From a virus (Duplodnaviria; Caudoviricetes), in IMG/VR virus record IMGVR_UViG_3300021387_001083, positions 1 to 64,000 of that record: a stretch of DNA of 64,000 bases. One strand, 5' to 3'. The translations under genes and the position numbers were made by a program. The notes below the pieces were generated by a model. The model saw nothing but the letters and a program-made list of their open reading frames with translations, ran no database searches and was not told the DNA's origin. This document shows, piece by piece, positions 14,874 to 47,100 of this stretch (positions within the stretch are counted from its first letter, which is position 1; every line of letters starts with the position of its first letter).

Positions 14874-14899
14874 AAGGGGGAGAGTGATCTCCCCTTTTT
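14874..14899 (+). terminator. Rho-independent terminator after MCP
   Basis: AAGGGGGAGA-gtga-TCTCCCCTT followed by TTTA. Confidence 0.75.
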
Positions 14900-14917
14900 A
14901 TACTAAGGAGAAAAACA

Positions 14918-15823: not shown

Positions 15824-15845
15824 ATATTATAAATAATTGCCCTAG

Positions 15846-16520: not shown

Positions 16521-16550
16521 CTTATTGTTTAATTAAATCTTTAATTTAAA

Positions 16551-28153: not shown

Positions 28154-31100
28154 ATGGCAACATTAACAGGTTTAAATACACAACAAGGGCAAAACAGAGA
28201 GGCTGGTCGAGTAAATGGTCAGCCTCTTCCTGATAACCCTACTATTAAAAATATAAGACCTATTACATTTGGTGAAGCTCAACAAATGATGTGGTCTCCT
28301 AGAGGAATTAAAAATCTTACAACTATAGAGCTTCCTGAAGATTATGGTGAAAGCCGTTTCGATAAACGTGCGTGGGCACCAAGTCAACTTTACGATTTAA
28401 ATGAACTTCGAGCACAAGAACAGACTGGTGCTGAAAAACTTTTTAACGGTATAGCAAAAGGTGCTGTGTTATTTGGCACTACATTTGTTACAGGTGTTGC
28501 AGAACTGCCTGTTGCTTTAGCTACTTCTTTGGAGCGAGGTGATTGGTCAGGTATGTGGGATAATGCTATCACACAAATGGCGTATGATGTGAGTCAGTCT
28601 GTTGAAAATGTACTTCCGAATTATTATACCAGCAGAGAACAAACAGATCCCTGGTATCAACATATATGGTCTGCTAATTTTATAGGTGACAAATTTCTTA
28701 AGAATCTTGGTTTTACTGCTGGTGCTATAGCTTCATCTGCAGTTACAAACAATTGGATGAATGCCTTAAAAATACCACAAGTAATGGCAACTATTCTAAG
28801 AAGTCAAAAAGCTGGCCGTTTTGCTTCAGCAGCCATAGGATCAGCATTGCAGGCTTATACTGAATCTTCTATTGAAGCCAAACAAGGTATGGAAGATTTT
28901 GTAAAGACAAAAGGACAATTGCTTGATGCTGAACACGAAAGAAGACTTCAAGAAATAGAAATGATGTTTCCCCTTCAAGGCGAAAATGTCGTTAATGTCA
29001 ATACAGACAAACAAGCTTTAATAGATGAAGAAAACCAAGCTTATGTCAATGCAAAAACAAGACTTGCTATGGATTCTTCTAAAGTCGGTAATTTTGTTTT
29101 AAGAAATGAAATGCCTTTGCTGTTTGCATCAAGCCTTTTTCAGTTTGGCAGAATGTATGCAAATGGTTTTGGCACAGCAAGACATATAAACAATGCTGTA
29201 AGAAAATCTGCAACAGAATATGGACTTAGAAATATTCCTGGGGCTGGTTTAGCTAAAGGTGTTGGTAATGCTTTTATGGAGGGTTCTGAAGAATTCAATC
29301 AATCAATGATACAGAACATTGCGGCAAACTATTATAAAGAAGACGTTGATAATTTCTATAACGCTTCTTTGGATCCAACATTAACTGAAAATACGGTGGA
29401 TTTTATGCGTTCTGCTGGCAGAAGTATTTCCGATACATGGAATGATTCGTCAGCTTGGGAAGAAGGCTTTATAGGGGCTCTTACAGGCGGTTTGGGTATG
29501 GTTCGTATAGGCAAGAATGCTCAGAACGCTGATGTAAAACTCGGTAAAATCGGTCTTGATGGTGGCATCATCGGTGATATAGCACAAGCCAGAAAAGAAC
29601 GTGTAAGACAGCAAAATATAATAGATCAGGTAAATAGTATACTTGGCAGTAAGAAAATATCAGCTATGGTCAGAGGTGCAAACAGAAACCAAATGGAACA
29701 AAACCGTATGGATTTCGCAGCTATGCAAGGTGATGCAAAAACTTTTAAGGATGCTGAATTTTCGCAAATGATCTCTGATATAATAACTATTGACCAAGTA
29801 GACGGTTTGCAGGATTATAAAGCTATGATATCTTCTGTATTGTCTGATGAGGCTTTAGCAGATCCAAAATATTTACAAGATTTGATACAAAGCACCGAAA
29901 AGGATATCAATGGCAAAAAAGAAGGCCCTTTTGCAGGTATGGATAATGCTGAAATTGTTGAAAGACTCAAAAAGACTCGAGAGACTCTTTTGGATGCTGT
30001 AGACAAATACAAAAAGATAAAAGACAAAATAGACATCAATACTGAAGGTGTTTTCTCTGAGGAACAACTTGGTACGCTTACGTGGATGAGAGCTAAGCTT
30101 GCCAACTGGGATGAACGTCAGAAAACAATGACTGGTGAACTTGTAGAAGATCTTAAAAAGCTTAAAGATGTTGCGGATAAGAAGAATCTGGAAATCCCCG
30201 AACTTGTTGTCAAAGAGATGGGTAAAGTGGACGCTGCTCAGATGGCTTCTGATATTCTTGCAGCAAGTATCAGTGAACAAGGACTTAAATCCATACCGCT
30301 TAGTGGAACTATAGATGATCTTATTAATAGCATAAGTAATTTAAAAACAAGGGCTGGTTCGTTTTTTGATGCCGACGTAGATGTCAAAAACAATGTAAAA
30401 GTACACGATGCTTTAGCCAATTGGATTAACTCTGTAGGCGTCATTATGGGTGCGGACACTACTGTTGACATAAAAGAGACTATTCAAAAAATGAAAGATC
30501 TTGCTGCAATCCATGAAGATGTTGTGAAATATAATATACAGCTTGCTGATTATCTTGAACATCCTGAAAGACTTGCTGAGGATATGTCTAAACAAGAAAA
30601 GAAAGCCGCTAAAAAACAACGTAAAAAAGAAAACAAAAAGACTGTTGACGCTTATAATAATGCCGATACTAAAGAAGACAAGGATGAAGTTTATGACAAC
30701 GCTGATGACAGTGGAAAAGCAGCTATAGACAAAGACCACAAGAATGATCCTGAATATCAATTTGATAAACATAAAAAAGAGTTTAGAGATGCTGTTGCAA
30801 AATCAATTGATGAGCAAGATGACATTGATGGTAGTGTTAAGGCTGCTGCAAAAGAAGCATATGACGCTGTTGTTGAAAATACGAATACCAGTAATTCAGA
30901 CAATTTATATTATCCTTATAGAGCATTGGCAGAATATAGGGAACCGCTTCGTACAGACATAGCATTGAGTGGTGATGATAATGCTATTGCAGAATTTGAT
31001 ACTCAAAACAATTGGGTGGATTTTGTTATTGATAGAGCAATACATAAAATATATGACAGTAACAATTTCAAGGATTCATTTAGAACTTACGAAGCACCTG

Positions 31101-34100
31101 CCAGTGCAGTACAACCTGCAAGAGATGATGTTTATGTAAGAATGAACGATCCTGCTGAACAAGCTCCTGCTACAAAACTTGGGACCGACTTGCCTGAAAA
31201 TGAGTTAGATACTCCAATTGCTCCAATATCTTCTGAGTCTTTGAAAGAAGCCAATGAAGTTCCTCCGACTACAACTGAACAAACCCCTGGTAACAGCGGT
31301 GACAAGAAAAGAACCTTAATGAACACTATTCCTTTCTATGACCCGGAAGCAAAGAAAAAACAAGACTACAGACCTTTCTGGGAAGTTGATATGGAAAGAG
31401 AACTGCAGGGTTTAAGGATGTCAGATGAAGCTGTAAAGACTTATATTGACAATATAAAATCTACAGGCTGGAAACATATTCCTCCTACAGAGACTCCCGA
31501 ATATATAGCTACAATAACACCAACTGAAGAAAATATAAACAATGGCACTTATAGAGGTTATTATGATATATGGAATTTCCTTGAAGAGCACGGTGCATTT
31601 AGATATGTAGATCAAGGTTTACTTGAACATGGAGACAAAATACAATTTGCAAAAGTACCAAGTATTTCTGACAATGTGTTGTTCTTCGTAAAGAAATTAA
31701 ACGATGATTCTTTTCAAATAATAGGAGTGGTATCTGCAAGAAACGATGTTATCGGTATACAAGAGCTTAGAAATATATTGAAAAATTCTAAATCAAGTAA
31801 CATAGGTATTCAATATAAAACAAACGATGGTTCTGTATCTACTGAAAAACGTAATGAGGTTGTTGATGTATACGATGTTGAAACTACTGTTATGGACATT
31901 TATAACGGTAACGTGCCTATTATCGATGAAGAAAGATCCTTAAAGGATATACCTAATGGTAGAGATGTTAAAATAGCTGTCATAAAAAATGGTTCATTTA
32001 CTGGTCAAGATATTGAAGGACTTCCTATAGAACCTGTCAATACAACCAATATGGAAGGCTATATTGTTGCTTTAGTTCCTACTGCAGCAAATACTTATTT
32101 TCCTGTTACTTTAAGAACAGCACCTGTTTCACAGACTTTATTTACTGACGACAATGAGTTTGCTAAAGAAATTCAAGAAACTGTAAAAGAACTTAATAAA
32201 GCAACAACTGTAGAAGTTGCTAGTAATCTAATGGTAGAGTTAAGAAAATCGTTGTATTTTGATGATGATTTAAAATATGAATATTATTTTAGAGACTCTA
32301 AAGGTGTTACACACCAAACGAAAGACAAAAACGATACTATTACAACGATAGGTTTTGGTAGTAAGAAACAAGATGCTGAAAACAATAGGATAAGAGAAGA
32401 AAATAAGAATCGTCCTGAAGATCAACAAGTACCTACCAAAAGTTCAATGGAATATGTAGATATTGATCGACATGACGAAACTAGTTTAAAAAAACTACAG
32501 GAATATATATTAAGTAAAGTTGTATATTATAATGTTACACCAAGAAATCTTAACGACCCGAAATACAACAACAAACTTATAAACAGCGATATTTTAACTA
32601 CTAACGTCGAAAGCCTTGAAGTTAGAAGCAGTTGGTTTGGTGCAAACTATTATGATCCAAATACAAAAAAGTTTGTACAAGCTGTGAGATTTCCGTCACC
32701 AATAAGAGGACAAGCTACACCTGTTGGTGGTGTTAATAATGAAAATCTTAAAGTCGTCATAAAAGGTAAAAACAACAAAGGCACAAATTTTACTTGGTAT
32801 GTCGATGAAACTAATGGTAAAAGAATATATTATCGTAAATCAGCAGATTCTAAAGATTTTAAGTTAATTAATGATAATGGAGCTATTAATAACTTAAATA
32901 ATGTTTTATATATTAAAAGACGATTCATACCACAGGAAGTAGAACGTTTTAAAACAGACGATAAAATTGATAGAGCTGGCCTTTCAAAACGTTATTCTAA
33001 TTACATATATTTTCAAGATCAAAACGACAAAAATATTTTTCATGACTATTATGTGTATCCCAGATTTGGAAATGAATATGGTATTTTTAAAATTGATCTT
33101 AATAATCCAGACAATATATCGTTTATTATTAGACAAAATAACTCTGACGAATATACAAATGTTTTGCAACAATATCTAGCCAAACGTTATATTCCTAAAC
33201 AAGAAGCTGTTAAAGAAGTTGCTAAACCTACTGTTGGCGTATCTAAAGATATCGGTACATCATTAGCTGAAAATTGGAATGGTAGAGTCGATATAGATAA
33301 AACTGAAGATGCTGATGATGTATTAAAAAGTTTAAATATTAAACTCAATCCAGAACCAATCACACTATTTTGGTATTCTAAAAAAGATATAGTGACAAAA
33401 ACTAAAGGTTATAAACTGCCAGGTAAGGATTTGTTTGTTGTTTTTGATGATAAAACTAATTTTGTCGTAAATGAAAATCAATCGGGTGATCTTAATGTAG
33501 CTTCATACAGAATTATTTCAAAAAATGGTTATTCTATACGCAAACAAGATGTAGATAAGCGAGATATCAAGATAACGCCCACATCTATTGAACGTATGCT
33601 TAGAAAAATAAGCGAAGATCTTACAGAAAACCAAGAAAAAATACTTAATGGTTATGAAGGTTTAAATAAAATCGTTCAAACTGTTACTCCATTACCTACA
33701 GAAACTGAACAATACACTAAAGTAAAAGATGTTTTAAAGACTAATTCTGAGCGTTTCAAAAATGAAAAAGGAGAAGTCAACAGAACATCCGGTCAGTATC
33801 AAACTAAAGATGGAGAATTATATTTAAGATTCCATGCTTTATCTGATAAAGGAAATGGTAGTTTTGAAACACCTTCCGATAAAGTAGAAAGTATTCCTCC
33901 AAATGAGCCAATAAAAAGAGGTATTGCATTTGATACTTTTATGAGGGAATACCTTTCTTCGAAAGATTTTGACAAAGCAAAGGTTGAACTTGGCAAACTT
34001 GTTTCTGCTGATAAAGATTATACTTTAAGTGATGAAGAACTTAATAATATAAAGACTTTTGTTGAAGAACAGCTTAAAGATTATAATATTATATCAAAAG

Positions 34101-36883
34101 ATCTTATTGTTTCAGGTACTTTCAATAACTTGCGTATCGCTGGTGAAATGGATTGCATTCTTGAAAAAGATGGTAGATTTTATATAGTTGATTTTAAAGC
34201 TAGTAAAAATGATCCATCAAAAGATGCATTTTACAAAACACAGCTAGCGTTCTATAAAGAAGCTTTACGTCAAATTCTTTCTGAAAATAATATAAATGAT
34301 GTGCCTATAGAAACTCTCGGTTTTATATGGTTATCTTCTACTTCGAAAAATGTATCATTAAAAACCACAGGTGATCTTGCGTTAAATCAACAAGTGTTAG
34401 GACCTTGGGCTGTTACTAAAGATGGTGTAACTCAATCTGTTGCAAACACTTATAATTGGGATGCTAGAATAAATAAGAAATATAACATAGAGGCTGATAA
34501 CAATACTGGCACTGTTATTAAAACAGAATCTGACGATGAAGGCATTGACTTTGATGATGACACTGATTCTGGTATGTTTAATTTAAATAATATGCCAGCC
34601 AGCAATGAAAGAAACAAACTTGTATCTGATGAATCTAGTTATACTGCTGCAGATATCAACAAAGAAGTTGAATGGATAAATCAAGTTTTACCACAACTTT
34701 CAAGGAATGAACAACTCATGATTGTTGATGGTCTTATAAAAACATCTAAACGTGGTGTTTATGCTTATGGCCAGCTTAAAAACAATGTTATAAAATTGTC
34801 AAGACAAGGCGTCAGAGGTATTGGTTTCCACGAAGTATTTCATTATATGTTTAATCTTGTTTTGAGTAATGAAGAACAAAATGAAATCTTCAGAGAAGCT
34901 TCTAAGAAATGGAACAATATTACCAATCCTATAGATTTAGAAGAAAAACTTGCAGACGCTTTTCAAGATTATGCTATCGACCAAGTTTATGGTGGCAGAG
35001 GTATTTTACCGGCAATGAAAAGATTCTTTAACAAACTTCTCTTGTGGATAAAACATGGTAAGACTATTGTACAACAGATGGACAATCTTTATAAAGACTT
35101 GAATGCTGGCAGATATATTGATGCTGAGGAACATCCTTTTGAAGGCGTTCGTTATCAAAAATATACATTTGAAATGCAACAAATAAAAGACCAAGCTATT
35201 GCTAATGGTACTTTTATGAAAGCTCCTAATGGTAAACCTACTAATCTTAATGAAAGACAATGGTTACAAGTTAGAACTAAAGCTTTTAAAAAATGGTTTG
35301 GCGATTGGGAAAGTGTTGCTGCTAGAATAGCTAATGCTAAAGTTATTTGGGGTCATCCTGGTATAGGTAAAACAGAATACTATAAAAATAACAAAAATGT
35401 TATAGATTTTGATAGTGTTTATAAACCTAGAATCAATAAAGAATTAGGACTTCCTGAAGGTGCTGAAGAACGTAAAAAATGGAGACGTGAGCATAGAGAT
35501 GAATATAGGCAAAAGATTCTTTCTTTATTTGATGAGGCTGTAGAGGATGCTAAGAAGCAGGGTAAACAACTATTAGTATCTGATATGGTTGTATTACAAG
35601 AAAGAGAAGATACTTTAGACCTTATTACTCAAATGTCTGAAGATACTTTTGCTAAAAGAAGCATGCAACGTAATGAACCTTATGATGATAATAGAAAACT
35701 TTGGAAAACTGATATAGACGAAAGTATATCTAAAGTATATGATAAATCTAAAGTAGTTAATACAGAAAAGTATCTTTCTGAACTTTATGAAGATGCTAAA
35801 AATGTTTCTAAAGTAGTAGATGAAAATGGTGAACCTTTAGTAGTTTATCATGGTACAACAGTTCCATTTACAACTTTTGATAAATCTAAACAAAATAGTA
35901 GATTTCCTTTTGGTTTAGGTACAAATGCTTTTTATTTTACTTCTAAAAAAGAAAATGCTGAAAAAATAGCTATAGGTGTTCATAAAGGAGATTTTCTTAT
36001 AAATAGTAAACCTTTATATAGCTCAGAATATCCTTGGGGGAATCCAAAATATATTAGTGAAGTTGTTGGATATAAAGTTGCTTCTGATTTTAAAAGTTTG
36101 ATAGAAGGTGCAAAAGATTTGTATTCAAAAGAGGTAATAGAAGACTATTTTAATAAAATAAATAAACCTAATACTACTATTCAAGAAATACAAGAAAGTT
36201 CTGATAACGTTATGGCTGTATTTTTAAATATAAAAAATATGGACATAAAAGATTACGAAGGAAAGAATCTTATGGATACTTCTTCAAAAGAATTTGATTC
36301 TTTTGTAAATAATAGTAAAGAAGGTGGTAAATTAGCTAATGTTAAAGATGGTAATATGAAATTAGCTGATACTTATTTTGTTAAAGAACCAAATCAAATT
36401 AAATCAGCTACTGATAATGTAGGTACTTTTGATCCAAACAATCCTGATATCAGATATTCTTTAGTCGATGATGTAGATCATGTAGGAAGACCTTTAACAC
36501 CAAAAGCTTATCAACCTATGATTGATAATATGGTAAACAATCTGCAATATGGTACAGATACCAATATTGATAATCAGTGGGGTTTGTTTGTTGATGATTA
36601 CTTTAGAAAATTCGGCATTGTAATTACTGGTCATAAAGTTAGAGGCAAATACAAAGTTGACAGTGTCACAAGAGGTTTTGTAGCACCTGAAGCAACTTCA
36701 ATTCAAAATGAAGATGGCACGATTAAATCTTTAAAAGAACTTAAAAATTCATCTGAATTTAGAAATGATTGGAACAATCTAACTGAATGGCAACAAACAG
36801 CTCTTGAAAATTCAGGTATGAATGAAGAGTTTTGGATAACTCTACCTAACGACATCAGAGATAACATATTACATTGCTTATAA
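28154..36883 (+). CDS. Giant virion cargo/polyvalent protein: N-terminal hydrophobic ejection region, PD-(D/E)XK nuclease-like, zincin HExxH, P-loop and ART-PolyVal-like domains
   Basis: 2909 aa. Motifs: IAGEMDCILE...IVDFKAS...QLAFY (about 33900-34350); GFHEVFH...EEKLADAF (34829-34962); GHPGIGKT (35351-35374); SKVVDENGEPLVVYHGT...FYFT...NQIKSATDN.GTFD.NNPDIRYS (35792-36460). Confidence 0.75.
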   Translation: MATLTGLNTQQGQNREAGRVNGQPLPDNPTIKNIRPITFGEAQQMMWSPRGIKNLTTIELPEDYGESRFDKRAWAPSQLYDLNELRAQEQTGAEKLFNGIAKGAVLFGTTFVTGVAELPVALATSLERGDWSGMWDNAITQMAYDVSQSVENVLPNYYTSREQTDPWYQHIWSANFIGDKFLKNLGFTAGAIASSAVTNNWMNALKIPQVMATILRSQKAGRFASAAIGSALQAYTESSIEAKQGMEDFVKTKGQLLDAEHERRLQEIEMMFPLQGENVVNVNTDKQALIDEENQAYVNAKTRLAMDSSKVGNFVLRNEMPLLFASSLFQFGRMYANGFGTARHINNAVRKSATEYGLRNIPGAGLAKGVGNAFMEGSEEFNQSMIQNIAANYYKEDVDNFYNASLDPTLTENTVDFMRSAGRSISDTWNDSSAWEEGFIGALTGGLGMVRIGKNAQNADVKLGKIGLDGGIIGDIAQARKERVRQQNIIDQVNSILGSKKISAMVRGANRNQMEQNRMDFAAMQGDAKTFKDAEFSQMISDIITIDQVDGLQDYKAMISSVLSDEALADPKYLQDLIQSTEKDINGKKEGPFAGMDNAEIVERLKKTRETLLDAVDKYKKIKDKIDINTEGVFSEEQLGTLTWMRAKLANWDERQKTMTGELVEDLKKLKDVADKKNLEIPELVVKEMGKVDAAQMASDILAASISEQGLKSIPLSGTIDDLINSISNLKTRAGSFFDADVDVKNNVKVHDALANWINSVGVIMGADTTVDIKETIQKMKDLAAIHEDVVKYNIQLADYLEHPERLAEDMSKQEKKAAKKQRKKENKKTVDAYNNADTKEDKDEVYDNADDSGKAAIDKDHKNDPEYQFDKHKKEFRDAVAKSIDEQDDIDGSVKAAAKEAYDAVVENTNTSNSDNLYYPYRALAEYREPLRTDIALSGDDNAIAEFDTQNNWVDFVIDRAIHKIYDSNNFKDSFRTYEAPASAVQPARDDVYVRMNDPAEQAPATKLGTDLPENELDTPIAPISSESLKEANEVPPTTTEQTPGNSGDKKRTLMNTIPFYDPEAKKKQDYRPFWEVDMERELQGLRMSDEAVKTYIDNIKSTGWKHIPPTETPEYIATITPTEENINNGTYRGYYDIWNFLEEHGAFRYVDQGLLEHGDKIQFAKVPSISDNVLFFVKKLNDDSFQIIGVVSARNDVIGIQELRNILKNSKSSNIGIQYKTNDGSVSTEKRNEVVDVYDVETTVMDIYNGNVPIIDEERSLKDIPNGRDVKIAVIKNGSFTGQDIEGLPIEPVNTTNMEGYIVALVPTAANTYFPVTLRTAPVSQTLFTDDNEFAKEIQETVKELNKATTVEVASNLMVELRKSLYFDDDLKYEYYFRDSKGVTHQTKDKNDTITTIGFGSKKQDAENNRIREENKNRPEDQQVPTKSSMEYVDIDRHDETSLKKLQEYILSKVVYYNVTPRNLNDPKYNNKLINSDILTTNVESLEVRSSWFGANYYDPNTKKFVQAVRFPSPIRGQATPVGGVNNENLKVVIKGKNNKGTNFTWYVDETNGKRIYYRKSADSKDFKLINDNGAINNLNNVLYIKRRFIPQEVERFKTDDKIDRAGLSKRYSNYIYFQDQNDKNIFHDYYVYPRFGNEYGIFKIDLNNPDNISFIIRQNNSDEYTNVLQQYLAKRYIPKQEAVKEVAKPTVGVSKDIGTSLAENWNGRVDIDKTEDADDVLKSLNIKLNPEPITLFWYSKKDIVTKTKGYKLPGKDLFVVFDDKTNFVVNENQSGDLNVASYRIISKNGYSIRKQDVDKRDIKITPTSIERMLRKISEDLTENQEKILNGYEGLNKIVQTVTPLPTETEQYTKVKDVLKTNSERFKNEKGEVNRTSGQYQTKDGELYLRFHALSDKGNGSFETPSDKVESIPPNEPIKRGIAFDTFMREYLSSKDFDKAKVELGKLVSADKDYTLSDEELNNIKTFVEEQLKDYNIISKDLIVSGTFNNLRIAGEMDCILEKDGRFYIVDFKASKNDPSKDAFYKTQLAFYKEALRQILSENNINDVPIETLGFIWLSSTSKNVSLKTTGDLALNQQVLGPWAVTKDGVTQSVANTYNWDARINKKYNIEADNNTGTVIKTESDDEGIDFDDDTDSGMFNLNNMPASNERNKLVSDESSYTAADINKEVEWINQVLPQLSRNEQLMIVDGLIKTSKRGVYAYGQLKNNVIKLSRQGVRGIGFHEVFHYMFNLVLSNEEQNEIFREASKKWNNITNPIDLEEKLADAFQDYAIDQVYGGRGILPAMKRFFNKLLLWIKHGKTIVQQMDNLYKDLNAGRYIDAEEHPFEGVRYQKYTFEMQQIKDQAIANGTFMKAPNGKPTNLNERQWLQVRTKAFKKWFGDWESVAARIANAKVIWGHPGIGKTEYYKNNKNVIDFDSVYKPRINKELGLPEGAEERKKWRREHRDEYRQKILSLFDEAVEDAKKQGKQLLVSDMVVLQEREDTLDLITQMSEDTFAKRSMQRNEPYDDNRKLWKTDIDESISKVYDKSKVVNTEKYLSELYEDAKNVSKVVDENGEPLVVYHGTTVPFTTFDKSKQNSRFPFGLGTNAFYFTSKKENAEKIAIGVHKGDFLINSKPLYSSEYPWGNPKYISEVVGYKVASDFKSLIEGAKDLYSKEVIEDYFNKINKPNTTIQEIQESSDNVMAVFLNIKNMDIKDYEGKNLMDTSSKEFDSFVNNSKEGGKLANVKDGNMKLADTYFVKEPNQIKSATDNVGTFDPNNPDIRYSLVDDVDHVGRPLTPKAYQPMIDNMVNNLQYGTDTNIDNQWGLFVDDYFRKFGIVITGHKVRGKYKVDSVTRGFVAPEATSIQNEDGTIKSLKELKNSSEFRNDWNNLTEWQQTALENSGMNEEFWITLPNDIRDNILHCL

Positions 36884-36886
36884 AAG

Positions 36887-36916
36887 AAAAGGGAGCCATA
36901 ACGGTTCCCTTTTTTT
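36887..36916 (+). terminator. Bidirectional-type terminator 1 at the convergence point
   Basis: AAAAGGGAGCC-ataac-GGTTCCCTTTT with an A-run before and a T-run after. Confidence 0.75.
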
Positions 36917-36927
36917 AGTATCTGGAA

Positions 36928-36966
36928 AAAATAAGGGAGGCTCTCTTTCGAGGGTCTCCCTTTATT
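36928..36966 (-). terminator. Terminator 2 at the convergence point (for the - arm)
   Basis: AAGGGAGGCTCTC-tttc-GAGGGTCTCCCTT, preceded on the + strand by an A-rich run (a T-run on the - strand). Confidence 0.7.
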
Positions 36967-36969
36967 GTT

Positions 36970-39900
36970 TTATCGTTTGTAAAATGGAATTGTTTCTTCA
37001 GGATGCAACATATTATACCAGTCATTATTAAATGGAAATAATGGGCTTTGATAAAATATTTTATATGCCTTTGTATGGCCTTTATAACGTCCTGAACGAA
37101 TCAAATCCTCTTCTTCAGTGGAATAATTGGCAGGATTCAATAGTTTGAATGTATCTATAATACCTTGCCATGTTCTTACATCTGCTGTAGGTGATTGAAT
37201 GATTTTAAACAGTTCATTTGGCAATAACAATGTAGGTGTAATGGCACCAATTTCAGTTCTCATTCTACGTAATTGGTATTCCATCATTTTTATTGCCCAA
37301 GGTCTATCTTTATCGTCATCCCAGTCAATAAGTATAAGTGCAAGTACTATAGCACCAAGTGTTGCCATTTCTGTTGCAGCACGTCTTACATTAGCTTTTT
37401 CTACATCTGTAAGTTCGTCTTTAAAAAGTTCCCAGTTAAACTCGCCATTTCTTATATCACGATATATTTGACCAAACAATCTGCCGACAGTATGATAATA
37501 TCCCTCAGTCCATTCGTCAAGATCAAAATTATAGTCTATACCGCGATATCTTCTGTTTACTGCAGGAACTATCCATTTACGGAAAATCATCGCCATACGG
37601 CCTATTGCAGTGCGTTGAAATGCGTTCATATCCTCAGTATTGTATATACCGTGCAGTCTATGGTTTATTTCACTTACTTTCCTTGAAAAATAATTCGTGA
37701 ATTCCTCTTGTGAAACTTCATTTTCCTTAAGTTTACCATGAGTTTTAGCTTCTTCTTTGGTTATGATTCTGTTACCATTACGGTCATGCAAACCGGTTTT
37801 CATTACAAGTTTGGCACCAAGACCTTGGTCTGTATCACCAAGTGTACCGTCTTCTTGTATAAATTTTCTGTCGTATGCTTCAGTGATTAAAACATCATTT
37901 CCTTCGATATCTTTGAGAGGTTCAGCATCAACCAATGAGAAAAATGTTCTATGTTGCATCCAATGTTCACCAGAATTCGTAGTAAAATACAGAAAGTCAC
38001 TACCGAACATTTTTTGAAACCATTGACGTCTGTCGAAACGGATATCCCTTATTTTACGGTCATATTCTTGCATGATGTTGTATTCATCATCAAATAATGC
38101 CATCATGCTTGTTTTTGCTCTCGAACCTATTTCAAGCATATAGTCAGGTAAATATTTTGCATAAGCCAAATCACCATGAGCAACATTTCTAGTATTAAAA
38201 AATTCCTTGGATTTGGCATCTATATCCATCATTATAACACCTTGGTTTATGTTTGCAAAACCTGCTAAGAAATTCAAAGCTAAACCATTAAGTGATGTCA
38301 GTTTATTTGATAAATCTGCAAGTTTGGATAAATCAAATGTTTGACCGAGAATTGTTATGGTACCTGCGTCAGCAAAATATCGTCCATATACCTGTGCAGA
38401 GAAAAAGTCATCTCTTTGTTGTGATATTCTTGTGCCAGTTTGTTTCAAGGCTTTTTGCTCGAATTCACGTCCCATAAATTTTATTTGTTCAACGATTGGT
38501 TTTCCACCTTCGGTCAGTTGAACTTCTTGGTTTCTGTCAAGAAAATCCCTTGCCACTTCAAGTGCATCAACGATATCATTCATGTTTTTATAGTTCACAG
38601 CCATATAAGCATATGCAGACATTGTTGAAACTATATCTGTCGATACATCATTTACATTGTCACCTCTTTGTATAAGTCTTCCTGATTTTGTAAATGTGTC
38701 TCCTCTGAGTTTTTGGTAATAAATCGGCAATCTGTTTATTGGCGTACTGTCAAATGTAAGGCGTTTTTTTATGAAAGCGTCCCCATATACAATTTCACCT
38801 TCCATACCGAAATCGACATCATCGGAACGTCTTATGACTTCATCTTTTAAAGATTCCACTATAGCTATGCCAGCACCTTTGATATTGCCTGCATCCTTAA
38901 CTCTTTCCACAAGGTCTTTTATAATTACAGGTACTGTATGAGTCTGTTGTCTTGTATTGGGTAGCCAGGAATCGAAAAGTTCTTTCATTTCAACCATTGT
39001 GTCATAGAATTCTTTCATAGCCTCATTGTTTTGAATTCTGTCATATTCAGGATTCAAATACATATCTGAAGGAACGTTGTATTTTGTTTTTTTGTCTTTT
39101 TGCAAGTGTTTGCTGTTCCATTCCTTTAGAGCGACATTTCTTTCTTTTCGTTGTGCTTTTGTCCATTTCGATCTATCTTCGCCGAATCTGTCGTTAAAAG
39201 ACTGTTCAAATTTGTTTTTGTCTATCCTATATTGTCCCCAGTTATATCTGCTGACAAAATTCAATGTGAGGTTTCCTTCATTATCTCTTTCAAATACGAA
39301 TGATTGATCTGTTATGCCAGCTTTTTCCAGTTTAAGACCTGCAGCTATAAGTTTCTTTTGATAGTCTATTGTTTCAAGTCTTGTTTTTGTATTTTGTTGT
39401 TTTACAGCTACTGCAAAAAGCTTGTTCATCCAGTCACCCGAATTCGTCATACTATTAAGCCATCTGTCAAGGAATGATATATCCGTAACAGCTTCATTGA
39501 CGAATCTGTCTACAGACATTTTTTCTCCTTTGTTTTTGCCAAAAGGAACGACAATTTCTTCACCCATAAAAGGTTTCATAAATGCTATGAATAATGGCTT
39601 TGCACTTTTGTCGTAAGCGTGTTCAAGTTCACTTGCAGCAAGAAAAGCACTGTCGACTATTGTCTTTATTTCGCCTTTAAAGAAACCAGTATCTATATTA
39701 TAGTTGGAATCTGTTGATTCTGCCTCATCATCTGCAGCATCTTTGATTTCTTTTAGGACATTTGTATAGCTGTTAAGGTAGTTTTTAACCTCTCTAAGCA
39801 CCTTGCATTTTTCATTTATAGACATATTGGGATTGCTTTCAACTTGTTTGATTCTGTCACTAAGGCTTTTGAAAGTGTTTAATGCTTTCTGCACAAACAT

Positions 39901-41178
39901 TGCTATACCCAAAGCTTGTCTTTGTTCATCGGTATTTTGGTATTTCTCCAATTTTGCAATGAATTCTTTTTCTTTGTCTATAAATTTCTTGTTTGCATAT
40001 GTGTCGTATATTGAAGCTCTCTTTATTTCGGTGTTTATAATTTTCTGTAAGAGCTTTATATCTCTGTCTACACGTTCATCAAGATGAAACAAAGTTCTAT
40101 TTACCTTTATAAGGTCAGACTTTAACACATCAGGATCTGTAAATACACTACTGGAAATTTTTTGGATGCTTGTTAAAGCTTCATCGACTAATTTTTGAAT
40201 TTCATTTTCATCCAGTCTGGAAAATTTTTGCTTAAAGACCTTTTTTAGCCTTTCTGAGAGGTTTTTGACGTTATCAGGCACAATTCCTTCACTCTCCAAA
40301 AAATATTGTCTTATAAGGCTTGTAATCGCTTCATGTGTTAAAGATTCCTTATTCCCATTGTATTTTTCATAATTCAAATCATATTCATCACCAAGAATAG
40401 CTTCTTCAAGATTGTTGTTTGAAATTATATTTACAAGTCTTTTTGCAAGTTCTTCATTCTTTAAGCATTCGTATACGAAATGCGAGAATTCTTCAGGCAA
40501 TTGCTGTTCTCCTCTTGAGCCTTTGGCAATCTTTATTATTGTTTTCAAACCATTAGCACCGTCTACCGCAGCCTTAAAGTCTATTTCGCCTGTTGCCAGT
40601 TCGTCTTGCAAATTGTCATAAGCATATACAGATACACCTGCCCTTTGCAATGCAGCTTTTATTTTATTGTTAAGTTCGTATGCTTTTTTAAAATCATCTG
40701 CAATTTTTCTTGTTGATTCTGAATAAGGTTCTACAGTTATAAACAGTTTGCGTCCTTTTTCGGTAGTAACGTGGTTAAGAATAGCAACGTAATTACCTTT
40801 CAAAGAATCATTGTCGTTGAATTTGATTATTTTTTCAACAGCAGATATATAATTCTCTGTATTGTCGTCAATTTGTCTATCGGTATTTAACTGTTGCTTC
40901 AGGTATTTTTGTATGCTTTCTTCATCCAAGTATTCTGCTAAATCAGTTTCTCTTAAAAGGTCACCAATATTCGGTTCGCCTTGTTCATTCAGTTCCACTT
41001 TCCCTTTCAGCAGTTCAAGATTAGCAGGACTTACAAGTTTAAGATATGTATCCACAACCTTGTTTCGTCTGTCTGGAAATTTTTTAGTGAAGGAAAGCAG
41101 GTCATTGAATAACCTGCTCTCCTCTTCATTATTGGTAACAGCATTTGTCACCATCGGTTTAAGATTACATGAAATCAT
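36970..41178 (-). CDS. Large virion cargo protein co-encoded with the RNAP (degenerate zincin EExxH, helical polyvalent-type C-terminus)
   Basis: 1402 aa containing EQQLPEEFSHFVYE and coiled coils. It starts 2 nt after the RNAP stop. Confidence 0.6.
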   Translation of the reverse strand: MISCNLKPMVTNAVTNNEEESRLFNDLLSFTKKFPDRRNKVVDTYLKLVSPANLELLKGKVELNEQGEPNIGDLLRETDLAEYLDEESIQKYLKQQLNTDRQIDDNTENYISAVEKIIKFNDNDSLKGNYVAILNHVTTEKGRKLFITVEPYSESTRKIADDFKKAYELNNKIKAALQRAGVSVYAYDNLQDELATGEIDFKAAVDGANGLKTIIKIAKGSRGEQQLPEEFSHFVYECLKNEELAKRLVNIISNNNLEEAILGDEYDLNYEKYNGNKESLTHEAITSLIRQYFLESEGIVPDNVKNLSERLKKVFKQKFSRLDENEIQKLVDEALTSIQKISSSVFTDPDVLKSDLIKVNRTLFHLDERVDRDIKLLQKIINTEIKRASIYDTYANKKFIDKEKEFIAKLEKYQNTDEQRQALGIAMFVQKALNTFKSLSDRIKQVESNPNMSINEKCKVLREVKNYLNSYTNVLKEIKDAADDEAESTDSNYNIDTGFFKGEIKTIVDSAFLAASELEHAYDKSAKPLFIAFMKPFMGEEIVVPFGKNKGEKMSVDRFVNEAVTDISFLDRWLNSMTNSGDWMNKLFAVAVKQQNTKTRLETIDYQKKLIAAGLKLEKAGITDQSFVFERDNEGNLTLNFVSRYNWGQYRIDKNKFEQSFNDRFGEDRSKWTKAQRKERNVALKEWNSKHLQKDKKTKYNVPSDMYLNPEYDRIQNNEAMKEFYDTMVEMKELFDSWLPNTRQQTHTVPVIIKDLVERVKDAGNIKGAGIAIVESLKDEVIRRSDDVDFGMEGEIVYGDAFIKKRLTFDSTPINRLPIYYQKLRGDTFTKSGRLIQRGDNVNDVSTDIVSTMSAYAYMAVNYKNMNDIVDALEVARDFLDRNQEVQLTEGGKPIVEQIKFMGREFEQKALKQTGTRISQQRDDFFSAQVYGRYFADAGTITILGQTFDLSKLADLSNKLTSLNGLALNFLAGFANINQGVIMMDIDAKSKEFFNTRNVAHGDLAYAKYLPDYMLEIGSRAKTSMMALFDDEYNIMQEYDRKIRDIRFDRRQWFQKMFGSDFLYFTTNSGEHWMQHRTFFSLVDAEPLKDIEGNDVLITEAYDRKFIQEDGTLGDTDQGLGAKLVMKTGLHDRNGNRIITKEEAKTHGKLKENEVSQEEFTNYFSRKVSEINHRLHGIYNTEDMNAFQRTAIGRMAMIFRKWIVPAVNRRYRGIDYNFDLDEWTEGYYHTVGRLFGQIYRDIRNGEFNWELFKDELTDVEKANVRRAATEMATLGAIVLALILIDWDDDKDRPWAIKMMEYQLRRMRTEIGAITPTLLLPNELFKIIQSPTADVRTWQGIIDTFKLLNPANYSTEEEDLIRSGRYKGHTKAYKIFYQSPLFPFNNDWYNMLHPEETIPFYKR

Positions 41179-41180
41179 GA

Positions 41181-44100
41181 TTAATTCTTACATAAGTTTT
41201 TACTTTTTTCTATTTCTTTATCGATTGCTAGCAGTTGTATTTTAATAGCGTTACGACTTTCATCGTCTTCATTAGCTTCATAATCTGACAACAAAGCATT
41301 TCTTTCGTTGTAAAGTGCTTCTAAATCAGCATCATTCTCTTCAACCTCAGTTGGAGTAGTCTTTATTTCAGGGGTATCTTCATGAGGATCGGAAATATTT
41401 TGCGGTGCTTGTGATGTTATTTGCTGTGTTGTAAATCTAGCTTTAAAAGCCTGTTCATCAGAAATGTCTCGACCGTTGATATCTCTAAATTTCCATCCTT
41501 TAGGAGCTAAAATACCACTTCTAATACCTAATTTCATTGCAGCTTTAATACCAGCCTCATCATAACCAGTTTGTCCACCACTTCTGATAGTCTCTATTTT
41601 AGTTTTTAGATTAGGATGATTTAACACTCTATTGAGTAAGTTATAGACATATTCATCAACTTGCTCTTGGGTGTATTTACCCTTTAAAGTATAGATACCA
41701 TTACCTGCAATATTAAGAGATTTGGCATTTACCTCGTTTAATTGGTCAACTATAGAATTTACTAACTTATCAGTAATTTCTGGATTATTGGTATTAACAG
41801 GAATATATTTTTTACCATTCTCCAAAACAGCTTTTTTAGTAAGTCTTTCTCCAGCAGAGTTAAAATCAACAGCCAAAGCAATAGTAGCGTCAGCTTTGGC
41901 ATTCTTAATGGTTCTTTCTCTATAACCATTAGAAGATTCTTCTTTAAATAAGGGCTCTGCAATAGTAGGTTCTTGAGAAGTAGGCTGACTGGTAAATTCT
42001 TCAAAATTCATAACTAACTGATTGGGGTCATGGTGATATTCCCTCATCAATCTGTTTCTAACTTCCATAAGAATTCTAGGAAACTCAGTACCCCATTTAC
42101 CTTTATCTTGGGTATGAGTTAGAGTAGCATAGCCTGTTTCAAAAAGTTTTTGTCTAGCTTGAGGATTCTGTCTAAAAGACTGTTCAATTAAGACTTCCAT
42201 AGTTTTAGAAGAGATTGCCTCCCAATCTTCTAATATAGTCTTACTACTATAAGAGACCTTGCCCATAGGAATAGTCCTTCCAAGTTTTTTAATTTCTGAA
42301 GGATTTTTAGAAGCAAGTATTTTATCTATTATCTCATTACATTTTTCCTCATTTTTACGTCCTTCTTCACTTTCATCGTTTATATAGTATCCTCTAGCAT
42401 AAGCAGCTTTAATAGCTTGAAATGCTTGCTCTACAGAATCAAATGAAGTACTTGCTAAAAATTCTTCTACTCCATCAGAATCTAAAAATTCCCATTCAGA
42501 TTTTAAATCAAAGAAATCATCATTAGTAAAACTTGAAAAGTCAAAAGGTCTTTCTGCAAAATTACTTAGTTCCACATTCTCTCCAGTACCTGCATAAATA
42601 TTAATAACTTCTGTTTTACTAGGTTCTTTCATGTTATTTTTGTTATTATTTTTCTTTGCAACATATTTTGTATCAATGACATCAACAAGTTCACTAGGAT
42701 TAGATTGAGCATCGTATACAAGAATATGTTTTGCTATACCAAGAGGATTGATTCTATCATATACAAGAGTTTCATCGTCAGATTCATCTTCATTCTTTTT
42801 ATAATAAACATTTTCACCATTGGAAACGATTGTTATATAAGGATGATAAGTGTTTTCAGATCTATTGATACCCTTACGAAGTATCAATTGTTCAGCACCA
42901 GAGCCTCTGACATTTTTGACATCGACAAAAAGTTTGTCTTCAACATTGTATACAGTTTTGCCTTTATCGTTAACACTTGCTATATTTGAAAAGGTTTCTA
43001 TAGGAACTTCAGGCGACAAAGATCTTTCATTCAAATTGTTTAGTATAAACATCTCCAAAAAGCCTGAAAGATTAAAATTGCCTTTTTCCATATTTCTGAT
43101 ACAGTCAATGTAATCACTGTTTACAGATTCTCTTGTAAACGTATTGGCAAGATGTATATATGTATCAGGACCGAAATCCCAAGCCGTCCTTAAACCTGCA
43201 TAGAAAAACAGTTCGTCAGCAAGTTGTCTGATCTTAGGATCTTTCGACTCAAACAAAGAACCCCAATAATTACCTATAATCCATTTAGAACGATTGTTCA
43301 AATGTCCAACGTTCATAAAATTAATTGTCGGCGCATTACAGGATTTTGTTTCTGAAAAAGTTCTTAACCTGGAAGTAAACATGTTGTTTTTGAGTTCAGG
43401 CATTGTCATACTCATGGTTTTGAATTTAAATGGAAAATCATATACCCATTTTCTTAAAATGTCTGCTTTGGTCAATACTTTTCCTGTCACAGGGTCTTTT
43501 TTGCCTACTTCATAAACTTTACCGTCAATGTCTGTATAGCTAGAATAATAATTGTTTTCACCACCGAAAGCAGTAAATACATAAAGTCTTGAATCCCTAT
43601 AAAATCTGTTTACTAACTTTGGACTTAATTTGCCGGTTTTAGTAATAGACCTTAACTGGTCAAGCAATTTCGGATACTGACTGTTAAATTCAGGAAAATA
43701 ATCCTTGAACAATACATTGGCAGATTCAATACCAAACGTAAACGACGCTTGTATGGCAGGGAAAGGTGAGTCGGAAAACATACTTAAAACTTCATCAGGA
43801 TTGCTGTCAATAAGCTGCATTATCCTGTCAAGCATGTTTACACGGACAATTGACCTGACTCCTGTCAAAGGATACGATTTTGCTTCGGAATCTTGTAAAA
43901 TTTGTCTTGCTACAGCAATCCTGTTCTCGGTAGTAGCTATATCAGGACCAGCAGCACCAGCAGAAGTATCTGCTTTACAGAACTTTACAATATCACCTAA
44001 GACTTTTGCTATCTTAAAGATATTATAATAAAGTTCTCCCATTGCAACTTGATCTTGAATATATTTATAATGTTCCTCATTATTAAGTTGATTGAGTTCC

Positions 44101-47100
44101 AATCTTCTTGCCTGAAGTTTATTATGAAACATATTAGCTTTAGTCCAAGTATAACCACCAGCTTTAAGTTTGTCAAACGAGAAAGATTTTTGATCCTGTT
44201 CATTTAACATATTTTTCCATCTATAAAGAACTGTGGTTATTGCTGATTCTTTACTTTTATTGCCTAAGTTATCAAAATACTCTTTTGTCATTTCTCTTAC
44301 AATAGGCTGTGTAAGTAACAGGTTTGTAGCATACTTATCATGACCAATTCTAGAGTTTGTGATTGCAACGTCAGCAGTAAAAGTATTCTGGTTCGTATCA
44401 GACAGAGTAGGGTCTTTAACGTCATCTACAGAACTGTCGACATGCTCAGATACATTTTTCGAAATGACCACATCGTGAGCACCAATCCTTTCATGTAATG
44501 AGTTATTTTCCCATTCGTCGATTTTGTATACAAACTCAGGTTTTATTGCAACATTGGTATGCTGCAGCAAAGCGTGATTTACACTCTGGTCAGCATTAAT
44601 GCCGATCATCATACCTGAAGATGAAATTCTGGAATGGTTCTTAACCCAAACAACAGGTGACAATGGATTGTCAACTGTTTTGTACTTGTCAAGTATTTTA
44701 TCCAACTCTTTGAGATCTAAAGTCTCAATTTTTTTGAAAAGATCTTCATCGGATGTTACATTAAATTGTTCTTTTAAGGCTTCAATTTGATCTAAAGGAA
44801 CGTTTTCTGAAAGTCTTACAACACGAGCAGATTTCTTTTGTTCATTAAAACCACCTGGATTCAACAGTTTACCCATTGTTTCGGAGTTTGTAAGTATACC
44901 AAAGACAAAATCGAGTATAATGTTGTTTCTTGCTTTACGAGCTTTCTTAAAGTCTTCATTTTGATCCAAAGCAGATTTACTGAAATCGTATTGTATCTTT
45001 CTCACCTGACCGTCTTCGAGAGTCTCAAGACCAGGAAGCATAAGATACAAGTGGTCAATATCAAAGTCAGAACCTGAAATAGTAACCCAATCAGCAGGAA
45101 GGATTATCGATGAACCTAAAGATTGAGGTAGAAAACCCTTTATTTTTAAAGGTAGCATTGAAAATTTATCTTCAGTAGGAATTCTGAATCCTACAATGTT
45201 AAGCAATTCATCACGATACTCTTCAGGAATGTCTTCAATTTTTAAAATACCGTTTTCGTCAGTATGTAAATATTGCAATAAGTCTGAATTATATACAGGA
45301 AGATAGCATTCTGCATAGGCAATATGACTTTTTGGATTTCCTGTAACACTGCCTTCTTCAGATTTCTTATAGGCTTCAAAAGTCTTGTATTTGTCTTTCA
45401 TTGATTGATTTTCATTGAATTCCTTTTCATTAAGAATAAGTTCACCTTTTGAATTGGTAAATCTTATTGCAAGTTCTTCATCATAACCGAAAGCTGAAAT
45501 CTGTACAGCACTACCACCATCAATCTGTTGTTTTGTCACATTATTTTTGATGATGCTGTATAACAGACTTTGAACCTTCCTACTTTGAACAGGATCTCCC
45601 AAAGGTATGTTGAAATATTTTTCACCAGTTTCGGGGTCGGTGACAAGAGTACACGCCTCCAAAAGATCTGGAGAAAATGTAGCACTTGACATAACTTGGT
45701 CTTTAAGTAATCTCTCAAGACTTTCAATATCAGTAAATTCATCTTTTACCGCTTTAAAGTCCATCATTATGTTTGCTGTACGTACATAATGATAAAGTCT
45801 TTTTGCATCTTTGAATGGTAAGAGTTTTTTACCAGTTTCTTTGTCTATTGTAAAAGCTACAGGAACACCAAAGATATTTACTGAATCTCCAGCAAAATAA
45901 GACATACCAGGAATTTCAACCAAAGTGTCATCACTTATATCAGCAGTGATTAACTTTGTTAACTGGGTACCAAGCAACTGTGTCTTATCAAACAAGTGTT
46001 CGGGATTTGGAGTCTGAATTACATAATCATGTAAATCAAGAGTATGTACAAATTTGGGATCTGCTTGTACTAAATTATTCAGTTGAGACACAATGGTCTT
46101 TTTTGTCTTGTTAAAATCACCGGTATCTTCAACAGAACTTAAGTCTATGACATGGTTAGCACCATCTTTAATTGCTGAACTGAAAACATATACGTCAACA
46201 TTGTCACCGCCAAATTCATTTAAAGCAGAAAGAACAGGAGAAGTATTTGCCATAGAAGCAAGCTGGGCATACATTGTAAGCAATACTGTTTCAGAAGTTT
46301 TTATCTGTAACGGTGCTTTAAAATGATGTTCGTTTCCAGCAGCATCCGTCCAAGCTATATCTTGGTCTGTATATACATACGGTTTTATAGCATTATAGAC
46401 AGTAAGAAAATCTTGCATATCAAACTCACCTTTCATAAATCTTTGATAGGATTCTTCTTTCTGTTCGTTCCAATCATTAGACATTATAGCAATCTTTCTA
46501 TAAGAAGATAATTTTCTAAATGATTGTGCATCAGTAATATTGTTTCCTTTATAAAGACTTAATGCAAGTTTTCTTTCAGCAGGATTCTTCAAATAAATGT
46601 TAAGTGTTCTTTCAATATCTTCATAAGAAGGAGAAGGTTTTTCTGAATCTTTTAAAAATACTGCTTTTTGATAACCGTCAGAAACTTTTTTACCGTTCCA
46701 TGTGGCATTTACATTCAAACGCATACCAGGAGCATGAAATTGTTTTGCTCTTTTTATCCATTCTTCAAGATTTTTATAGAAAGCAAGATCTCCTGTAATC
46801 AATTCGATCATTTCAGCTTGTGCATACATGGAATTGTAAAAGAATTCTCTAAAAGCTTCTGTAGTAGGATCTGTTTTGTTTATATTATCTTTAGCATTAT
46901 TTATCATATTGCTTATTGATTCACTTTCCTGATAAAGATCACCAAGATAATCCAAAGCTGGTCTGACAACACTGATTATTTTTGTGATTTTGTCCATATT
47001 TACATTGGAATAATCTATGTTGTTTCTCAAAACATAAGCAGTCTTGTCCTTATTTAGCACTATATAGGGTTCTAGAAAGTTATAGAGAATGTTTTCGATA

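Follow-up and report, generated by a model that had tools for sequence, protein, structure and literature searches.

An ADP-ribosyltransferase domain and a NADAR-SLOG cassette on two giant proteins of a crAss-type phage locus are distributed independently of each other

Two giant proteins encoded on opposite strands of one locus in a crAss-like gut phage carry, near their C-termini, an ADP-ribosyltransferase (ART) domain on the one and NADAR and SLOG domains on the other, which raises the question of whether writer and eraser form a co-injected, toxin/antidote-like pair, as a sequence-only reading had suggested, or are independent acquisitions, as the same reading had allowed as its fallback. 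In the window (the whole stretch of 64,000 nucleotides of viral DNA that was analysed), both domain assignments were confirmed, and the interval 35174-42605 that had been singled out fits them, beginning at the linker motif that precedes the ART and ending where NADAR starts. The distribution of the modules among relatives favoured the fallback, and we moderately favour reading the modules as effector cassettes that sit on injected proteins and are exchanged laterally and independently of each other, rather than as a matched writer/eraser pair. The carriers and their gene block are as follows:

28154..36883, plus strand: giant cargo protein, 2909 aa, homologue of crAss001 gp47 with C-terminal polyvalent-type modules (ORF, translation, homology)
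36476..36883, plus strand: conserved C-terminal tail of the cargo protein, aa 2775-2909 (comparison with relatives L001 and L002)
36933..36962, no strand: hairpin with a 13-bp stem and a T-run, lying where the two gene blocks converge, terminator-like (1 found vs 0.2 expected)
36970..41178, minus strand: 1402-aa protein, homologue of crAss001 gp49, an RNA polymerase-associated virion protein (39% identity, full length, to the crAss001 1352-aa ORF)
41181-50024, minus strand: whole ORF of the predicted crAss-type virion RNA polymerase, 2947 aa (Pfam, PHROG and PDB matches)
42633..50024, minus strand: RNA polymerase body, aa 1-2464, with DFDID at 45054-45068 (PDB 6VR4_A, E 5e-22; 2358 homologues; alignment A1)
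41181..41402, minus strand: conserved C-terminal tail of the polymerase, 73 aa, ending in NLCKN (kept in the relative P0124 directly after the polymerase body)

Judged by its sequence, the polymerase ORF encodes a crAss-type virion RNA polymerase resembling phi14:2 gp66 (PDB 6VR4_A), with the match spanning aa 1606-1684 around DFDID (aa 1653-1657), a DxDxD metal-binding motif in which D1653, D1655 and D1657 are conserved; in the tail, C2945 is almost invariant among 40 homologues. Residues 65-1553 and 2169-2277 of the cargo protein align to the crAss001 2343-aa ORF, and its gene directly follows the MUZ, CARG1 and CARGO2 positions, the order in relatives being Ring-MUZ-CARG1-CARGO2-giant protein. 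Its tail shares 82% identity with that of L001 and 28% with that of L002, whereas the ART immediately upstream differs. The crAss001 counterparts were named gp47 (2343 aa) and gp49 (1352 aa) by ORF size, and Pfam and PHROG searches with the 1402-aa ORF gave no match. Mass spectrometry of crAss001 virions detected gp47, gp49 and gp50 (PMC10172136), and the earlier prediction that both carriers are virion-packaged gains support from their homology to gp47 and gp50; by this analogy, the window's own cargo protein and polymerase are probably packaged as well. The crAss001 proteins and phi14:2 gp66 are homologous carriers in an identical convergent gene layout, but crAss001 lacks ART-PolyVal, NADAR, cpYpsA and Macro, whereas the window carries ART, NADAR and SLOG, and the window proteins are ~550 aa longer than their crAss001 counterparts because of such add-on modules. 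Those of the cargo protein follow one another upstream of its tail:

33914..34330, plus strand: PD-(D/E)XK nuclease-like domain, aa 1921-2059 (Pfam PDDEXK_1, E 7e-7; phrog_298 exonuclease)
34658..34984, plus strand: HExxH region, aa 2169-2277, with HEVFH at 34829-34843, conserved with crAss001 gp47 (39% identity to the crAss001 ORF)
35171..35320, plus strand: polyvalent-protein linker motif (KAPNGKP...WFGDWE), aa 2340-2389 (phrog_30335)
35327..35788, plus strand: P-loop domain, aa 2392-2545, with Walker A GHPGIGKT at 35351-35374 (read from sequence)
35819..36430, plus strand: ART-PolyVal ADP-ribosyltransferase domain, PF18760, aa 2556-2759 (Pfam; 56-sequence alignment; AF2 model)

With its PD-(D/E)XK, HExxH, linker, P-loop and ART modules all encoded in a single ORF, the cargo protein corresponds to the definition of a polyvalent protein (Iyer et al. 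2017), delivery being presumed from crAss001. The HExxH region is probably a zincin-like peptidase module, a role suggested by analogy with PMC5512222. The linker motif, 94% identical to the N-terminus of the polymerase P0004, stands immediately before the ART in most homologues; in the window the P-loop domain is inserted between the two, with no counterpart in L100, L101 or L001 and no match in Pfam.

The ART-PolyVal profile matched at E 2e-14, with 54.9 and 61.8 bits against a cut-off of 31.2 bits, and the domain contains neither stops nor frameshifts. [quoted passage not shown] An AF2 model of the domain, which has a subfamily-specific insert of ~95 aa, reached a pLDDT of 84.6. On structural alignment with VIA-align, all 31 of the 31 chains at Z >=5 were ART-superfamily domains, the best matches being PARP/tankyrase catalytic domains and ParT (top Z 7.0 for tankyrase 1, rmsd 2.5 Å, 104 aligned), and diphtheria toxin and exotoxin A following at Z of about 6; Foldseek matches were non-significant, yet again headed by PARPs. 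At these middling Z scores the model supports rather than proves a PARP/diphtheria-toxin-type ART fold. ART-PolyVal domains have been predicted to act on host proteins (PMC5512222), and the literature that we searched contained no experimental paper on the family, its substrates included.

On the polymerase, the accessory domains form a single block:

41403..42632, minus strand: NADAR-SLOG cassette, aa 2465-2874, either complete or missing altogether (indel vs P0124)
42084..42578, minus strand: NADAR domain, PF08719, phage gp30.3/AdfN type, aa 2483-2647 (Pfam; alignment with T4 gp30.3)
41451..41948, minus strand: SLOG (cpYpsA-like) domain, PF12694 (Pfam; phrog_10774, E 8e-30; alignment A3)

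Both domains scored above their Pfam cut-offs, NADAR at E 8e-11 (42.8 and 46.8 bits vs 35.1), with a weak additional match to the YbiA structure 2B3W, and SLOG at E 5e-12 (46.2 vs 26.2 bits); PHROG matches agreed with the Pfam domain calls on both giant ORFs. NADAR enzymes use a catalytic Glu and a Lys seven residues apart, together with a last-strand residue that is His, Glu (YbiA) or Asp (DarT1-linked) (PMC11543638, PMC11125620), and E2532, K2539 and H2637 of the window are invariant in an alignment with T4 gp30.3 and four crAss NADARs. Phage NADARs of the gp30.3/AdfN type strip ADPr from guanine and overcome DarTG1 (PMC11825919); T4 AdfN alone did not neutralise DarT1, and other phage factors were required. 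The SLOG match is split into two stretches with the segment SGGQTG last rather than first, while G047, G062 and G064 keep the order of the model (alignment A3); the domain is therefore SLOG-like, with an order permuted relative to the model.

Comparison with relatives revealed how readily these modules move. P0124, the polymerase of a close relative, matches aa 1-2464 at 86% identity and continues straight into aa 2875-2947, so that precisely the 410 aa of the NADAR-SLOG cassette are missing; its genome keeps an ART on the cargo protein. In P0004 the polymerase core is 24% identical to the window's, the NADAR 92% and the linker 94%, a pattern that points to lateral exchange of NADAR and linker. 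The closest ART homologues are 90%, 79% and 60% identical, and in the three lineages with these most similar ARTs (60-90% identity) the polymerases carry neither NADAR nor SLOG; an ART alongside a cassette-free polymerase occurs in L001, L099/L100, L101 and L102/L103. As the two modules are gained and lost independently across related phages, we regard them as separate plug-in weapons rather than as toxin and antidote.

We suggest that the gp47-like cargo protein and the gp50-like virion RNA polymerase would each dock exchangeable accessory effector cassettes immediately upstream of the conserved C-terminal tail of the carrier. The ART-PolyVal domain would most likely mono-ADP-ribosylate a host target straight after ejection, like T4 Alt, and the NADAR-SLOG cassette would most likely counter host defences that use ADP-ribosylation or signals derived from NAD. 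In this proposal, for which we infer substrates and timing from domain type and carrier, NADAR would strip ADP-ribose set by putative host DarT1-like enzymes on guanines of the incoming DNA and SLOG would have an NAD-derived nucleotide as its ligand or substrate; both would already be present on the polymerase, the first enzyme to read the DNA, ahead of any phage gene expression. The suggestion of the sequence-only reading that incoming phage DNA could be shielded by a NADAR tethered to the polymerase is supported as an idea.

In a variant with equally independent modules, the NADAR-SLOG cassette would act on small molecules instead of DNA, degrading or sequestering compounds that the host makes early in infection, either immune signals derived from NAD or ADPr derivatives that are toxic, for example cADPR isomers of Thoeris-type systems; we consider this possible but rather unlikely. 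Iyer et al. 2022 (PMC9503650) argued from context that phage Macro, NADAR and SLOG domains act mainly against soluble ADPr derivatives, and noted that SLOG is often joined to NADAR or Macro. SLOG alone is also by far the commoner add-on, accounting for most of the 2532 giant proteins with such fused domains that we found, for 11/150 polymerase representatives with SLOG only, and with SLOG in 9 of 78 crAss-like genomes, a predominance that fits a ligand-directed function independent of NADAR. However, all phage NADARs assayed to date hydrolyse guanine-ADPr on DNA, the window NADAR has E/K/H in common with T4 AdfN, and a tether to a DNA-bound polymerase would suit a DNA substrate better.

The co-injected pair originally proposed, in which the ART would mark host or competitor nucleic acid and the polymerase-tethered NADAR would clean the phage template, we judge to be improbable. 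Both activities do lie inside one virion-protein gene block, and several lineages (P0004, G079, G111, G040, L002) have ART and NADAR in one giant ORF or in two that abut; the literature searched describes no ART-PolyVal substrate, the H-Y-acid clade includes the DNA-modifying DarT, and non-DarT ART/NADAR toxin-antitoxin pairs exist (YarT-YbiA). Such adjacency is, however, expected anyway, because all accessory modules are housed in three adjacent genes, and polyvalent proteins typically combine unrelated activities (PMC5512222). The proposal had named co-occurrence across crAss-like phages as its check and chance-level co-occurrence as evidence against it, and chance level is what we found in every contrast. 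Among 78 crAss-like records drawn via the polymerase, which are related by descent and yield small NADAR counts, ART was present in 12, NADAR in 3 and SLOG in 9, with ART and NADAR together in one (0.46 expected); Macro was searched for in the same 78 and found in none. Among the 37 near-complete records, 7 had ART, 6 had NADAR or SLOG, and none had ART with either. ART-PolyVal occurred in 8/43 NADAR-positive viral contigs against a base rate of 12/78, and within single polymerase polypeptides ART and NADAR coincided twice among 150 (0.5 expected), a non-significant excess (p 0.09); no Fisher test of the association was significant (all p about 0.09 or higher). Of the crAss-like genomes with an ART, some 80% or more have none of NADAR, SLOG and Macro, and five complete ART-bearing genomes contained no NADAR, SLOG, Macro or ARG. 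A DarTG-like genetic linkage of writer and eraser conserved across lineages was thus not observed. The nearest relative, which lost or never gained the cassette, and the nearest ART homologues with their cassette-free polymerases suggest from natural variation that the writer does not depend on the eraser. A narrower version, confined to the window's sub-lineage and to P0004, G079, G111 and G040, in which a nucleobase mark set by the ART would be erased co-transcriptionally by the polymerase NADAR as a facultative virion-borne self-protection, appears similarly improbable. Least probable of all, one or both modules could be inactive passengers, decaying domains or spacers adding packaged mass, as fast gain and loss between close relatives and the many ART-PolyVal copies without the strand-2 tyrosine would allow, but both catalytic sets are intact in the window without stops or frameshifts, and the modules are 90-92% identical while their carriers diverged far more, which speaks for selection on the modules.

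Independent, exchangeable cassettes as the preferred reading bear on what crassviruses, which rank first in abundance among human gut phages, inject besides DNA. In the window and its relatives the conserved cargo proteins serve as docks for quickly swapped enzyme cassettes, with ADP-ribose adding and removing chemistry as a frequent payload, and a NADAR whose anti-DarT type has been validated by experiment, placed on the first enzyme that meets the incoming genome, suggests counter-defence before phage gene expression. Uncoupling the ART from the NADAR also keeps an unsupported toxin/antidote story from spreading, and cultured Kehishuvirus isolates that differ in the polymerase SLOG module offer a possible laboratory system.

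Among known systems, the polyvalent proteins of PMC5512222 are alike in being big virion-associated polypeptides that string together unrelated effectors for delivery with the DNA, including an H-Y-D clade ART, a zincin-like peptidase, nucleases, kinases and LPD linkers. The same study describes an ART fused to the N4-type virion RNA polymerase of Roseovarius Plymouth podovirus 1, so a packaged polymerase with an ADPr-related domain has a precedent; that carrier is, however, a T7-like N4 enzyme bearing an ART, whereas the window has a crAss-specific gp47-like protein and a two-barrel polymerase that bears the eraser/sensor-type NADAR and SLOG before a conserved tail. T4 likewise combines an injected ART (Alt) with a His-type NADAR (gp30.3/AdfN) in one phage, the genes being about 3 kb apart, but Alt belongs to the R-S-E clade rather than to ART-PolyVal, AdfN is a free-standing early protein while both window modules are fused to packaged giants, and the T4 pair is functionally separate, Alt acting on host proteins and AdfN on DarT1 damage to DNA. 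True writer/eraser pairs, with NADAR as eraser of guanine-ADPr, are DarT1-NADAR (DarTG1) and YarT-YbiA (PMC11543638, PMC11125620); these form operons with conserved linkage and an Asp- or Glu-type NADAR, in contrast to the unconserved linkage, phage His type and different ART family of the window. The sequence-only reading knew of no description of such a pairing in virion cargo, but virion-packaged ARTs with NADAR, Macro or Nudix, as well as NADAR+SLOG architectures, are described in PMC9503650, so that the concept of a packaged ART with ADPr erasers is already known in general terms, from PMC5512222 too. In the survey of PMC9503650 crAss-like phages go unmentioned and the phage versions are typically stand-alone, while those of the window are fused into giant cargo proteins.

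The two domains that the sequence-only reading had joined into a co-injected toxin/antidote-like pair, an ADP-ribosyltransferase (ART-PolyVal) and the ADP-ribose-removing NADAR, lie on giant proteins encoded by converging genes. The source IMG/VR virus record, of which the window is a part, spans 84.6 kb and is estimated to be 84% complete. The open reading frames (ORFs) concerned are as follows:

28154-36883, + strand: P0001, giant cargo protein, 2909-aa ORF, after the structural-gene block
36970-41178, - strand: P0002, 1402-aa ORF, convergent on P0001
41181-50024, - strand: P0003, polymerase, 2947-aa ORF, convergent on P0001

The + strand structural block closes with 1395-aa, 742-aa and 575-aa genes ahead of P0001, which occupy the positions that the crAss muzzle, cargo 1 and cargo 2 genes have in relatives, and an 86-nt spacer holding a hairpin with a 13-bp stem separates P0001 from the - strand genes. 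P0003, with 2358 homologues in a representative library, matches the crAss-type virion polymerase phi14:2 gp66 (6VR4_A, E 5e-22) around the DFDID motif; no IMG/VR relatives were returned by a query with the core of this single protein, and they were found with an alignment query instead. Upon comparison with a 102,679-bp record whose polymerase region is 100% identical to that of Bacteroides phage crAss001, P0001 (aa 65-1553 and 2169-2277) matched a 2343-aa ORF, and P0002 matched a 1352-aa ORF at 39% identity over its full length; by their lengths, the two ORFs of that record are gp47 and gp49. Because gp47, gp49 and gp50 were detected by mass spectrometry in crAss001 virions (PMC10172136), packaging of the window's predicted cargo proteins is a reasonable inference from homology. 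Virion delivery of both carriers is hence likely, though through these homologues rather than by direct demonstration. P0003 also has a conserved 73-aa C-terminal tail ending in NLCKN (41181-41402, - strand), and accessory cassettes are located just inside it. Among 40 polymerase homologues, C2945 and the N-terminal M1 and C5 (50010-50024, - strand) are nearly invariant, and the tail may act as a packaging or ejection signal.

The domain assignments themselves were confirmed, with the ART on P0001 and both the NADAR and the SLOG domain on P0003 scoring above the curated Pfam cut-offs. The ART-PolyVal domain occupies aa 2556-2759 of P0001 and has relatives in 4650 giant proteins. In a 56-sequence alignment, H2566 is invariant, the aromatic position is Y2594, and the window's residues agree with the H-Y-D configuration given for the clade in PMC5512222, where ART-PolyVal is described as PARP/diphtheria-toxin-like. 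On the basis of a 12-sequence alignment and the ART subfamily, the catalytic acid was at first read as missing from this ART, given T2740 where many homologues have Glu and an adjacent D2739 that is Asn in close relatives; this reading was dropped, as that position is acidic in just 18 of the 56 sequences and the D-G motif, E2723-G in the window, in 54. An AF2 model built from the 56 sequences reached a pLDDT of 84.6 (49.7, unusable, from 12 sequences), and all solved chains at Z ≥5 against it were ART domains, at middling scores of 6.5-7.0 for tankyrase, PARP2, NatT and ParT and of ~6 for PARP1, diphtheria toxin, exotoxin A and a cyanophage pre-ejectosome protein; Foldseek of the model against the PDB gave no significant match. 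The cyanophage protein, from phage A4 (PDB 9k3a_B, Z 6.0, 17% identity), would be a solved case in which an ejection protein carries an ART-like domain. The ART further contains a subfamily-specific insert of ~95 aa (about 35960-36230, + strand; P0001 aa about 2604-2690), common to 38 proteins at 54-90% identity, which lies between the helix following strand 2 and the FLNIKN strand and is confidently modelled as a small helical subdomain. Between the ART and the polyvalent-protein linker motif preceding it sits a P-loop domain of ~150 aa with the Walker A sequence GHPGIGKT (35327-35788, + strand); linker and ART are adjacent in the related locus L101 and most other relatives, and another relative, L100, has a different insert there.

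On P0003, NADAR spans aa 2483-2647 and the SLOG domain (Pfam cpYpsA) about aa 2694-2858, and relatives of this block were found in 2532 giant proteins. Aligning the NADAR with four crAss NADARs and the experimentally characterised T4 gp30.3 (AdfN) showed E2532, K2539 and H2637 to be invariant. Glu and Lys are needed for guanine-ADPr hydrolysis and the His marks phage NADARs (PMC11543638, PMC11125620); in the alignment, E2532/K2539 and H2637 correspond to these residues. The SLOG domain (41451-41948, - strand) differs in segment order from the Pfam cpYpsA model: its Y.ERT/ADATI and LNIAGN segments precede SGGQTG, the reverse of that model and of the polymerases of G047, G062 and G064. A scan of one genome per prokaryote species with the NADAR alignment gave a sole match for the crAss-type NADAR, the 114.7-kb contig WLWP01000004.1 (L184), binned in a Pseudomonadales MAG, which is probably a phage contig, either mis-binned or from a resident phage.

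We found the pairing of the two domains not to be supported by their co-occurrence. Among 78 crAss-like IMG/VR records, collected via polymerase alignment and each scanned in six frames, ART-PolyVal was present in 12, NADAR in 3 and cpYpsA in 9, while ART and NADAR coincided in 1 record versus 0.46 expected, counts that rest on phylogenetically non-independent records, few NADARs and detection by Pfam profiles. The 37 records that were at least 90% complete held ART in 7 and NADAR or SLOG in 6, with an overlap of 0. Selecting instead for NADAR, we obtained ART-PolyVal in 8/43 contigs of at least 70 kb (19%) and in 5/25 near-complete ones (20%), which cannot be told apart from the 15-19% base rate; ART-selected IMG/VR contigs were mostly short non-crAss fragments. 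Single polymerase polypeptides (150 cluster representatives) combined both domains twice versus 0.5 expected (p 0.09). The most similar ARTs, 90%, 79% and 60% identical and with the same insert, come from genomes whose polymerases of 2534, 3385 and 2536 aa lack NADAR and SLOG. As for other erasers, Macro was found in none of the 78 records, and ADP-ribosylglycohydrolase in none of five complete ART-bearing genomes. Where ART and NADAR are both present, they lie on the same or abutting giant ORFs, an adjacency that carries little weight because all such accessory modules sit in few adjacent genes. One such locus is L185 (G079; 262-10925), where a 1806-aa ORF with SLOG then NADAR directly adjoins a 1749-aa ORF that begins with the linker motif and ART; the arrangement recurs in G080, G101 and G104.

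Both add-ons are cassettes in their behaviour. The nearest relative found, L001, carries the same 1402-aa gene next to a 2539-aa polymerase (P0124) that is 86% identical to P0003 over aa 1-2464 and then runs straight on to the equivalent of aa 2875-2947, so that it lacks exactly the 410 aa of the NADAR-SLOG block and retains the 73-aa tail. Its convergent cargo protein closes with the linker motif, a different variant of ART-PolyVal and a tail 82% identical to the window's. In an ENA metagenome polymerase, P0004, the core shares only 24% identity with that of P0003, yet the N-terminus bears a linker 94% identical to window 35171-35320, an ART-PolyVal, and a NADAR that shares 92% identity with window 42030-42620. 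Such similar modules on so divergent a core show that modules move between distant genomes and point to recent lateral exchange between distant crAss-like phages. In cultured Kehishuvirus isolates PhiCrAssBcn1, 2, 3, 20 and 25, a 2608-aa polymerase carries a SLOG module close to its N-terminus (PhiCrAssBcn2, L268, OQ221537.1, locus 8737-16563, with a HicA toxin annotated upstream). The polymerase region of crAss001 is 95-99% identical to theirs and gave no match in a cpYpsA search, providing a natural pair with and without SLOG in a tractable host.

On the most economical reading, ART and NADAR-SLOG would be two independent payloads. ART-PolyVal has been predicted, by analogy with the packaged T4 ART Alt, to modify proteins of the host as the phage enters (PMC5512222). 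A NADAR that travels on the ejected polymerase would be present ahead of all phage gene expression. The phage NADARs assayed to date strip ADP-ribose from DNA guanines, and AdfN of T4, Bas32 and Bas60 restored phage growth against DarTG1 (PMC11825919); damage by DarT1 keeps incoming DNA from being transcribed and replicated. In a serious rival reading, NADAR and SLOG have soluble NAD-derived signals as their targets instead, the view favoured for the phage versions in PMC9503650. What stands of the sequence-only reading is the domains, likely delivery and a protective NADAR role, without the coupled writer/eraser system.

Our search of the openly accessible literature found no paper connecting crAss-like phages to NADAR, SLOG or ART-PolyVal, and the new contribution is a negative one, namely that the ART/NADAR pairing does not hold up when tested. 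The window's add-ons belong to the polyvalent-protein phenomenon, which has a precedent in an N4-type virion polymerase with a fused ART (PMC5512222), and fit into the virion-packaged NAD/ADPr toolkit (PMC9503650). They differ in their carriers, a crAss gp47-like cargo protein and a two-barrel crAss polymerase, in that the polymerase bears a domain of the eraser type, and in their insertion ahead of a conserved C-terminal tail. The closest analogy is T4, whose packaged ART (alt) and NADAR (30.3) are encoded ~3 kb apart yet serve separate purposes.
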